Assembly: GCF_036507355.1 (NCBI RefSeq)
Contig: NZ_AP027877.1
From: Escherichia coli
Lineage (GTDB): Bacteria; Pseudomonadota; Gammaproteobacteria; Enterobacterales; Enterobacteriaceae
Direction: 5' to 3' (one strand)
DNA length: 64,000 bases
Part shown: positions 57,001-60,000 of the stretch, piece by piece
Layout: each line of letters starts with the position of its first letter
How positions within the stretch are numbered: position 1 is the first letter of the stretch
Program-made: the position numbers

Positions 57001-60000
57001 TGTTAATTTAAACACTATGAGAGATGATGCTTACCTTATCGTATTTAATCTATTGTTTAACGATAATAGATTAAAAATAGAAAGAGAGTAGTCCCCTACT
57101 CTTATATATCCATGTTGGCGATAATCCCTTTGTATGTACTGTGCATCATCGCTATTAAAAATCCTAATAATTCATTTCCACACAGGATAAGTAGATGAAG
57201 AAAAAAATTGAATCCTACCAGGGTGCTGCCGGTGGTTGGGGTGCTGTTAAATCCGTAGCGAATGCAGTACGTAAGCAGATGGATATACGCCAGGATGTTA
57301 TTGCCATGTTTGACATGAATAAGCCAGAGGGCTTTGACTGTCCGGGTTGTGCATGGCCAGATCCTAAGCACAGTGCGTCATTCGACATTTGTGAAAACGG
57401 CGTAAAAGCAATCGCCTGGGAAGTCACGGATAAGCAGGTAAACGCCTCTTTCTTTGCTGAGAATACGGTTCAATCATTACTTACCTGGGGAGACCACGAG
57501 CTTGAGGCTGCGGGGCGACTCACTCAGCCTTTGAAATATGATGCCGTCAGCGACTGTTACAAGCCATTAAGCTGGCAACAAGCTTTCGATGAAATTGGCG
57601 CACGCCTTCAAAGCTATAGTGATCCCAATCAGGTTGAATTCTATACTTCGGGCCGCACTTCCAATGAAGCTGCCTTTCTTTATCAGCTTTTTGCCCGTGA
57701 ATACGGGAGCAATAACTTTCCCGACTGCTCCAACATGTGCCATGAACCGACAAGCGTGGGTTTGGCAGCGAGTATCGGTGTAGGTAAAGGGACCGTGTTG
57801 CTGGAAGACTTTGAGAAGTGCGATTTAGTCATTTGCATTGGGCATAACCCTGGTACAAACCACCCTCGCATGCTGACTTCGTTGCGCGCTTTAGTGAAAC
57901 GGGGCGCGAAAATGATCGCCATAAACCCTCTACAGGAACGTGGCCTGGAGCGATTTACCGCACCGCAAAACCCGTTTGAAATGCTGACGAACTCTGAGAC
58001 TCAGTTGGCCAGTGCCTACTATAACGTGCGCATCGGTGGCGATATGGCGTTGCTCAAGGGGATGATGCGCCTGTTAATTGAGCGCGATGATGCTGCAAGC
58101 GCCGCAGGTCGGCCCTCATTGCTGGATGACGAATTTATTCAAACGCATACCGTCGGCTTTGACGAGCTACGCCGTGACGTTCTCAATTCCGAGTGGAAAG
58201 ATATCGAACGTATTTCTGGGCTAAGTCAGACTCAAATCGCCGAACTGGCTGACGCATATGCCGCTGCCGAACGCACCATTATCTGTTACGGAATGGGGAT
58301 CACTCAGCACGAACATGGTACCCAGAATGTACAGCAACTGGTCAATCTGCTGTTGATGAAAGGTAACATTGGCAAGCCTGGTGCGGGTATCTGCCCACTA
58401 CGTGGACACTCTAATGTACAGGGCGACCGAACCGTCGGTATCACCGAGAAACCATCTGCAGAGTTTCTGGCTCGCCTGGGTGAGCGCTATGGCTTCACAC
58501 CACCTCAAGCACCTGGACATGCTGCAATTGCCAGCATGCAAGCAATATGTACAGGGCAGGCTCGAGCATTGATCTGCATGGGGGGCAACTTTGCACTGGC
58601 AATGCCAGATCGGGAAGCGAGCGCTGTACCGTTAACGCAATTAGATCTGGCGGTACACGTAGCCACTAAGCTTAACCGCTCTCATCTGCTGACCGCACGG
58701 CATAGCTATATTCTGCCGGTTCTGGGACGTAGCGAGATTGACATGCAAAAAAGCGGTGCGCAGGCGGTAACCGTTGAGGATTCAATGTCGATGATTCATG
58801 CCTCGCGTGGCGTGTTAAAACCCGCCGGTGTAATGCTGAAATCAGAGTGTGCAGTGGTCGCGGGAATCGCACAGGCAGCACTACCCCAGAGCGTGGTAGC
58901 CTGGGAGTATCTGGTGGAAGATTATGATCGCATTCGCAATGACATTGAAGCTGTGCTGCCAGAGTTCGCCGACTATAACCAGCGCATCCGACATCCTGGA
59001 GGTTTTCACCTGATAAATGCAGCTGCTGAAAGGCGCTGGATGACGCCGTCAGGTAAGGCTAATTTCATTACCAGCAAAGGGCTGTTAGAAGATCCCTCTT
59101 CAGCGTTTAACAGTAAGCTGGTCATGGCGACAGTACGCAGTCACGATCAGTACAACACGACGATTTATGGTATGGATGATCGTTATCGAGGGGTATTCGG
59201 TCAACGAGATGTGGTCTTTATGAGTGCTAAACAAGCTAAAATTTGCCGTGTAAAAAACGGCGAAAGAGTTAATCTTATTGCGCTTACGCCAGACGGTAAG
59301 CGAAGCTCTCGCCGCATGGATAGATTAAAAGTGGTCATTTACCCTATGGCTGACCGCTCACTGGTGACCTATTTTCCAGAATCGAATCACATGCTAACAC
59401 TTGATAACCACGATCCATTAAGTGGCATTCCTGGCTATAAAAGTATTCCGGTTGAATTAGAACCATCAAATTAATGCCTCTTCTCACTTCTTCTGCTGTC
59501 ATCCGCACAGCAGAAGAATCCCTCATTGACTATTATCGCGCAATTTGCTCACATGGATTAAATTAAACTACATACTATAAGATATAAACTTCTGCCTACA
59601 GCTGTAAGAAACTCCGCTCAGTACTGAAGCACCAGTCCTATTTCCTCTTTTCTCCAGCCTGTTATATTAAGCATACTGATTAACGATTTTTAACGTTATC
59701 CGCTAAATAAACATATTTGAAATGCATGCGACCACAGTGAAAAACAAAATCACGCAAAGAGACAACTATAAAGAAATCATGTCTGTAATTGTGGTTGTCT
59801 TATTACTGACCCTTACGTTGATAGCCATTTTTTCGGCAATTGATCAGCTGGGCATTTCAGAAATGGGTCGCATTGCAAGAGATCTTACACATTTCATTAT
59901 CAATAGTTTGCAAGACTGAAAATAAACAGCAAATTATAAATATGAAATGTTAAAAAAGTATCGATAAAAACTTTATTGTTTTAAGGAGATAAAATGTCGC

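Follow-up and report, generated by a model that had tools for sequence, protein, structure and literature searches.

A probable EvgA box at the safA-ydeO promoter of an Escherichia coli strain and its relation to the ydeP promoter

Introduction

The ydeP-safA intergenic region of Escherichia coli contains an 18-bp near-palindrome upstream of the safA-ydeO operon, which raises the question of whether this is the site at which the response regulator EvgA acts on the operon, and whether EvgA would act there alone. The question was addressed in a stretch of 64,000 nucleotides of contig NZ_AP027877.1 (assembly GCF_036507355.1), referred to below as the window; the strain is not K-12.

Gene identities were taken from K-12 and from the RefSeq annotation of orthologous loci. 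On the + strand, the window carries ydeP (57195..59474; b1501 of K-12), the co-regulated upstream gene with an EvgA box of its own, followed by the two genes of the operon. The first is safA (59722..59919; b1500), which encodes a 65-aa connector protein activating PhoQ, and the second is ydeO (59994..60755; b1499), which encodes an AraC-family regulator of acid resistance; ydeN (b1498 of K-12) is a neighbouring ORF, also on the + strand. With the stop counted, the proteins matched those of K-12 at 757/760 positions for YdeP, 63/66 for SafA and 251/254 for YdeO. A search of 5426 complete genomes of E. coli found the intergenic region in 5373, with a best match of 99.2% identity. The other 53 of the 5426 genomes gave no match to the intergenic query, and in strain SFE8 (NZ_CP051219.1) the match was limited to query bases 9-54, which cover the ydeP hairpin. 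The partial match in SFE8 and the 53 matchless genomes fit the safA-ydeO deletions described in strain MP1 (PMC5706723).

Published work describes safA-ydeO as an EvgA-activated operon (PMC5706723, PMC5619816, PMC4222967). When the pH drops, EvgA activates its promoter, which YdeO and PhoP repress (PMC5619816). Acid induction of the operon depends on EvgA according to reviews, and an evgA mutant failed to induce ydeO (PMC4222967, which does not present the data). Direct binding of EvgA at the safA-ydeO promoter is reported in two reviews (PMC9496106, citing Itou 2009; PMC8147483), and all genes known as directly regulated have an EvgA binding site (PMC4283999). An earlier note on this DNA had named a lack of EvgA-dependent safA-ydeO expression as the finding that would speak against an EvgA box at this position, and such a lack is contradicted by the published work.

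Position and form of the box

Direct reading of the sequence placed the box, TGCCTACAGCTGTAAGAA, at 59593-59610 on the + strand of the ydeP-safA intergenic region. As the EvgA box of the safA-ydeO promoter (59593..59610), it was listed with no strand assigned and takes the form TGCCTACA-GC-TGTAAGAA. From its end to the safA ATG at 59722 there are 111 nt, in agreement with the earlier note, which had placed an inverted repeat approximately 110 bp upstream of safA. The two 8-nt arms are complementary at 6/8 positions and make up an imperfect repeat. Its core is a perfect 10-bp palindrome, TACAGCTGTA, which widens to the 8-2-8 form with two non-complementary outer positions. Because the arms are imperfect and there is no loop, the box was absent from the output of the repeat finder (6-nt seed), which returned only the ydeP hairpin in this intergenic region. 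The sequence of the box in K-12 is identical, and the differences between K-12 and the window fall outside it.

A sister EvgA box, ATCCTACACCTGTAAGAA, is located at 56934..56951 (no strand assigned; ATCCTACA-CC-TGTAAGAA), 243 nt before the ydeP ATG. It agrees with the safA box at 15/18 bases, which bears out the proposal that the safA site is a second copy of the ydeP repeat. In the divergent lineage NZ_JAATUR010000028.1 the ydeP box is kept as ATCCTACGCCTGTAAGAA. At window position 56936 (5247 in the fetched K-12 locus), the left half of the ydeP box reads ATCCTACA in the window and AGCCTACA in K-12 (ATCC vs AGCC), and the box of the window is one mismatch nearer to the consensus than that of K-12.

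Match to the EvgA consensus and recurrence in the regulon

An 18-bp inverted-repeat EvgA consensus was reportedly defined by Masuda & Church in 2003 and is said to have been used by Itou et al. in 2009. The consensus scored in this analysis was TTCYTACA-N2-TGTRAGAA (TTCYTACANNTGTRAGAA), 18 bp in length. The left half of the safA box (59593-59600) has one mismatch to TTCYTACA, its second base being G and not T, and the right half (59603-59610) has no mismatch to the consensus half. The ydeP box also has one mismatch to TTCYTACANNTGTRAGAA, and these two were the only sites with at most one mismatch in the 64 kb. Even at a threshold of three mismatches, no third locus could be found in the 64-kb window beside the safA and ydeP boxes.

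The regulon scan covered the K-12 regions of the other EvgA-induced operons, 34.5 kb in total. Sites with at most two mismatches in K-12 were found upstream of safA, ydeP, emrK/evgA, frc, yfdX and yegR, and none was found elsewhere in those 34.5 kb of K-12 loci. The hdeD-gadE intergenic region, upstream of gadE, had no EvgA box at up to three mismatches. The regulon scan is consistent with the 18-bp inverted-repeat consensus. According to secondary citations, the footprinted EvgA sequence would be exactly the 18-mer upstream of safA. The near-palindrome at 59593-59610 is very probably the EvgA operator ('EvgA box') of the safA-ydeO promoter, where EvgA binding and EvgA dependence come from the literature.

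Promoter sequence shared by safA and ydeP

Similarity downstream of the two boxes was evaluated by an ungapped in-register count, which was used instead of gapped local alignment, a method insensitive for promoter similarity (safA-ydeP z 2.5). With the register set by the box, 59611-59690 and 56952-57031 aligned without gaps at 48/80 in-register identities, compared with 22.7 +/- 3.8 in shuffles (maximum of 38 in 2000), and none of the other EvgA promoter pairs came near 48/80. On this count, one promoter module seems to be present in duplicate, at safA and at ydeP. Moreover, the predicted -10 hexamer begins 61.5 bp from the box centre at both safA and ydeP. Co-regulation of ydeP with safA-ydeO, which had been read from the repeated box, is now backed more strongly than in the earlier note because the promoters share a further 80 colinear bases and an equal box-to--10 spacing.

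A four-way alignment with NZ_JAATUR010000028.1 revealed the blocks A(C/A)T(C/T)CGC, TGAAG, AGTC(C/T)TATTT and TGnTA(T/A)(A/T)TT after the box. On the + strand of the safA promoter, the first of these is ACTCCGC (59611..59617), which adjoins the box, reads AATCCGC at ydeP and is largely invariant in 11 lineages. It is followed by TGAAG (59625..59629), in register with ydeP, and by AGTCCTATTT (59634..59643), which lies over the predicted -35 region and is invariant in the 11 lineages. The last block, TGtTATATT (59660..59668, + strand), is a predicted extended -10 of the safA-ydeO promoter; the 'n' is its sole varying position, it aligns with ydeP, and it is kept in NZ_JAATUR010000028.1. In the same four-way alignment, the candidate extended -10 of ydeP is TGtTAATTT (57001..57009, + strand).

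The transcription start of safA-ydeO would be near 59673-59675. If the start lies approximately 7 nt after the hexamer, the box would be centred near -73 and AGTCCTATTT would extend from about -41 to -32. A simple sigma-70 and terminator scan gave no promoter match between the safA box and safA. The scan promoter of ydeP, TTGAAG-16-TATATT (56965-56992), was dropped since it is not conserved in NZ_JAATUR010000028.1, and the aligned TGnTAWWTT was preferred.

Within AGTCCTATTT, GTCCTA can be read as resembling an EvgA half-site. Its first base lies 42 bp downstream of that of the left half-site of the safA box, and this offset (four helical turns) would put GTCCTA and the left half-site on one face of the helix. 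RTCYTA, a weak half-site match noticed post hoc, is present at box end +24 to +29 in safA, ydeP, emrK and yegR. The instances are AGTCCT (safA, 59634-59639), AGTCTT (ydeP, 56975-56980), AGTCCT (emrK) and AATCCT (yegR), and the statistics of the recurrence are weak, ydeP and safA not being independent of each other. RTCYTA could represent a secondary half-site that faces the same side of the helix as the box.

The palindrome TCAGTACTGA (59618-59627), 21 bp after the box centre, was considered as a secondary dimer site and judged to be chance because it is broken in NZ_JAATUR010000028.1 (TCAGCAGTGA) and absent at ydeP. The best candidate for a PhoP box, at 59677-59693, is unconvincing: it has three mismatches, the window holds 183 sites of equal quality, and it was not counted as evidence. 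Upstream, ACTATAAG is shared by safA (59574-59581) and emrK, in each case at -19 to -12 relative to the box (at emrK, the emrK-oriented one). At safA it lies inside the block TAAGATATA, which is conserved in NZ_JAATUR010000028.1, and it is like the right half-site TGTAAGAA at 6/8 positions.

It is possible, and on the whole somewhat doubtful, that a module of approximately 100 bp was duplicated between ydeP and safA with the box as its anchor, that its internal blocks contact more EvgA subunits or a partner such as RcsB, and that activation is a cooperative multi-protein assembly and not the act of a single dimer. Such a module would run, at fixed spacing, in the order box, TCCGC, TGAAG, AGTCYTATTT and extended -10.

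EvgA alone or with RcsB

RcsB has been reported as necessary at safA, independently of GadE (PMC5651002), and EvgA may therefore not act alone. Instead of an EvgA homodimer, EvgA and RcsB could jointly occupy the box; RcsB is likewise of the NarL/FixJ type and pairs with several proteins in mixed dimers. Induction of safA-ydeO would then require the presence of both at this site or beside it. A heterodimer of EvgA and RcsB was a speculation of Johnson et al. 2011, as reported in PMC5651002. The form of several boxes fits this loosely, as the safA, ydeP and emrK boxes are asymmetric: the promoter-proximal half is perfect or nearly so, and the promoter-distal half is off consensus at its first two bases (TG in safA, AT/AG in ydeP and AT in emrK). 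A further loose fit is the block A(C/A)T(C/T)CGC, which abuts the safA and ydeP boxes in both lineages. However, symmetry is perfect in the palindromic frc box and nearly so in those of yfdX and yegR, as expected of a homodimer, and the reviews that describe direct EvgA binding mention no partner (PMC9496106, PMC8147483). Binding by an EvgA-RcsB pair appears improbable, and it is the only live alternative to an operator occupied by EvgA itself.

Conservation across E. coli lineages

The 18-mer could also be a near-palindrome that arose by chance in AT-rich intergenic sequence, or the remnant of a duplicated segment, and have no regulatory role of its own. The imperfect pairing of its arms would suit such an origin, as would the paralogy of the ydeP and safA upstream regions over approximately 100 bp, since a second copy in paralogous regions could be inherited and not selected. 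However, none of 100 dinucleotide-preserving shuffles contained an equally good site (at most one mismatch), and the motif is present at four other EvgA-regulon promoters without detectable paralogy to safA.

Conservation was assessed in an alignment of 11 sequences, which included nine E. coli strains spanning the identity range, K-12 and NZ_JAATUR010000028.1. Among these 11 lineages, 2/18 positions of the safA box vary, namely the first base (59593) and the spacer base 59602. In the upstream flank, from the ydeP hairpin to the box, 42/74 positions vary, and in the stretch 59646-59659 between the -35 block and the -10, 9/14 vary. As judged from the alignment, the safA box is a conserved island against its flanks, and it stays far less variable than they are down to 84.6% overall identity. 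Together with the published EvgA binding at the safA-ydeO promoter, these results leave a chance or leftover origin with a vanishingly small probability.

NZ_JAATUR010000028.1, which is labelled E. coli, has 84.6% identity to the window across ydeP-safA-ydeO, and both EvgA boxes and the promoter blocks are kept in it. Its divergence goes well beyond that of typical E. coli strains, and it may be a cryptic Escherichia lineage. A scan of a genome collection for the box followed by ACTCCG returned E. coli DNA only and gave no deeper phylogenetic footprint; this result agrees with the confinement of safA-ydeO to E. coli and Shigella (PMC5706723, PMC9496106). Besides NZ_JAATUR010000028.1, the scan yielded two metagenome-bin contigs, JARKOR010000108.1 ('Candidatus Nanosynbacter' MAG, 142-9157) and UMGS1713, which are approximately 98% identical to the window over aligned lengths of 9 kb and 2.4 kb, respectively; both are E. 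coli DNA mis-binned into unrelated genomes.

RNA structure near the box

The box lies downstream of ydeP and some reviews write 'ydeP-safA-ydeO operon' (PMC11052181, PMC8147483), so that a read-through transcript of ydeP could contain it and the inverted repeat could act as RNA (a hairpin, terminator or processing site), but the box region folded as RNA reaches -2.1 kcal/mol with a z of 0.35 (115/200 shuffles fold as well), a 2-nt spacer is unable to form a loop, Rfam gave no match at or near the gathering score at the box, and the real hairpin lies 75 nt upstream, all of which makes an RNA role extremely improbable. The only Rfam match, a sub-threshold match to a snoRNA, was taken as chance. 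By shuffles, conservation and folding, the chance and RNA-structure explanations are effectively excluded.

The hairpin itself is located directly 3' of the ydeP stop (59488..59518, + strand), between ydeP and the safA promoter, and has a perfect 12-bp stem with -17.5 kcal/mol and a z of -4.95. It is terminator-like but without a U tract, and its stems are conserved in all lineages aligned. In NZ_JAATUR010000028.1 the stems are the same, and the loop is approximately the reverse complement of that of the window (CATCCGC vs ACGGATG); the loop looks as if it had been inverted between the palindromic arms.

Proposed mechanism and significance

In the most likely mechanism, the EvgS kinase phosphorylates EvgA, a NarL/FixJ-type response regulator, at mildly acidic pH, and a dimer of EvgA-P binds the two inverted TTCYTACA half-sites. 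The bound EvgA would activate a weak sigma-70 promoter downstream, approximately 62 bp away, which would have an extended -10 and a poor -35. Centred about 73 bp upstream of the putative start, the box would sit where upstream (class I-like) activators typically bind. Activation may proceed via a class I-like contact with RNA polymerase, via the recruitment of further subunits toward the -35, or via both, and the conserved blocks between the box and the -10 may offer extra contacts for EvgA, a partner protein or RNA polymerase. The products would be SafA, the link from EvgS/EvgA to PhoQ/PhoP, and YdeO, the activator of gadE. As ydeP has the same promoter module, both units would be switched on together, and PhoP and YdeO would, according to the literature, repress the safA-ydeO promoter later.

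Both the acid-resistance cascade EvgA > YdeO > GadE and the connection to PhoQ/PhoP through SafA have their entry point at the safA box. Its sequence, rarity, recurrence across the regulon and conservation are established here. The identification of the motif as an EvgA box, as put forward in the earlier note, was validated by the single mismatch to the consensus, the identity in K-12 and the recurrence at regulon promoters, and the box has been kept throughout the diversity of E. coli. The site is an EvgA site that has already been described, so that the identification is correct but ordinary, and confirming it adds nothing new because the site is well studied. What is new is the promoter anatomy, for which we infer the -10 element, the transcription start, a box centre near -73, a class I-like mechanism and a role of the extra blocks. 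The module shared by ydeP and safA, with its fixed box-to--10 spacing, provides a modest lead on the contacts that EvgA, perhaps jointly with RcsB, makes with RNA polymerase.

Comparison with known systems

BvgA has its E. coli homologue in EvgA, whose half-site TTCYTA resembles the BvgA heptad. At Bordetella fhaB, a high-affinity inverted heptad repeat at -88.5 is accompanied by low-affinity sites at -67.5 and beside the -35, which BvgA fills cooperatively (PMC2225982). The safA promoter is like fhaB in that its primary site would lie far upstream of the core promoter (about -73) and in that conserved sequence continues down to the -35 region. Unlike fhaB, the spacing of the safA blocks differs from the 21-bp steps of fhaB, and the blocks match the half-site weakly.

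RcsB and EvgA belong to the same protein family, and the RcsB box differs from the EvgA box in having its half-sites in the opposite order and at a different spacing. RcsB, a member of the NarL/FixJ family, functions either as a homodimer or in combination with partners that include RcsA and GadE (PMC5651002).

The closest system is the EvgA box set of E. coli itself (ydeP, safA(b1500)-ydeO, yfdX, frc, yegR and emrKY). From the known box of that set, the site at 59593-59610 differs in nothing of substance: the motif, the gene and the position are the same, and it corresponds to that very site in a non-K-12 strain.
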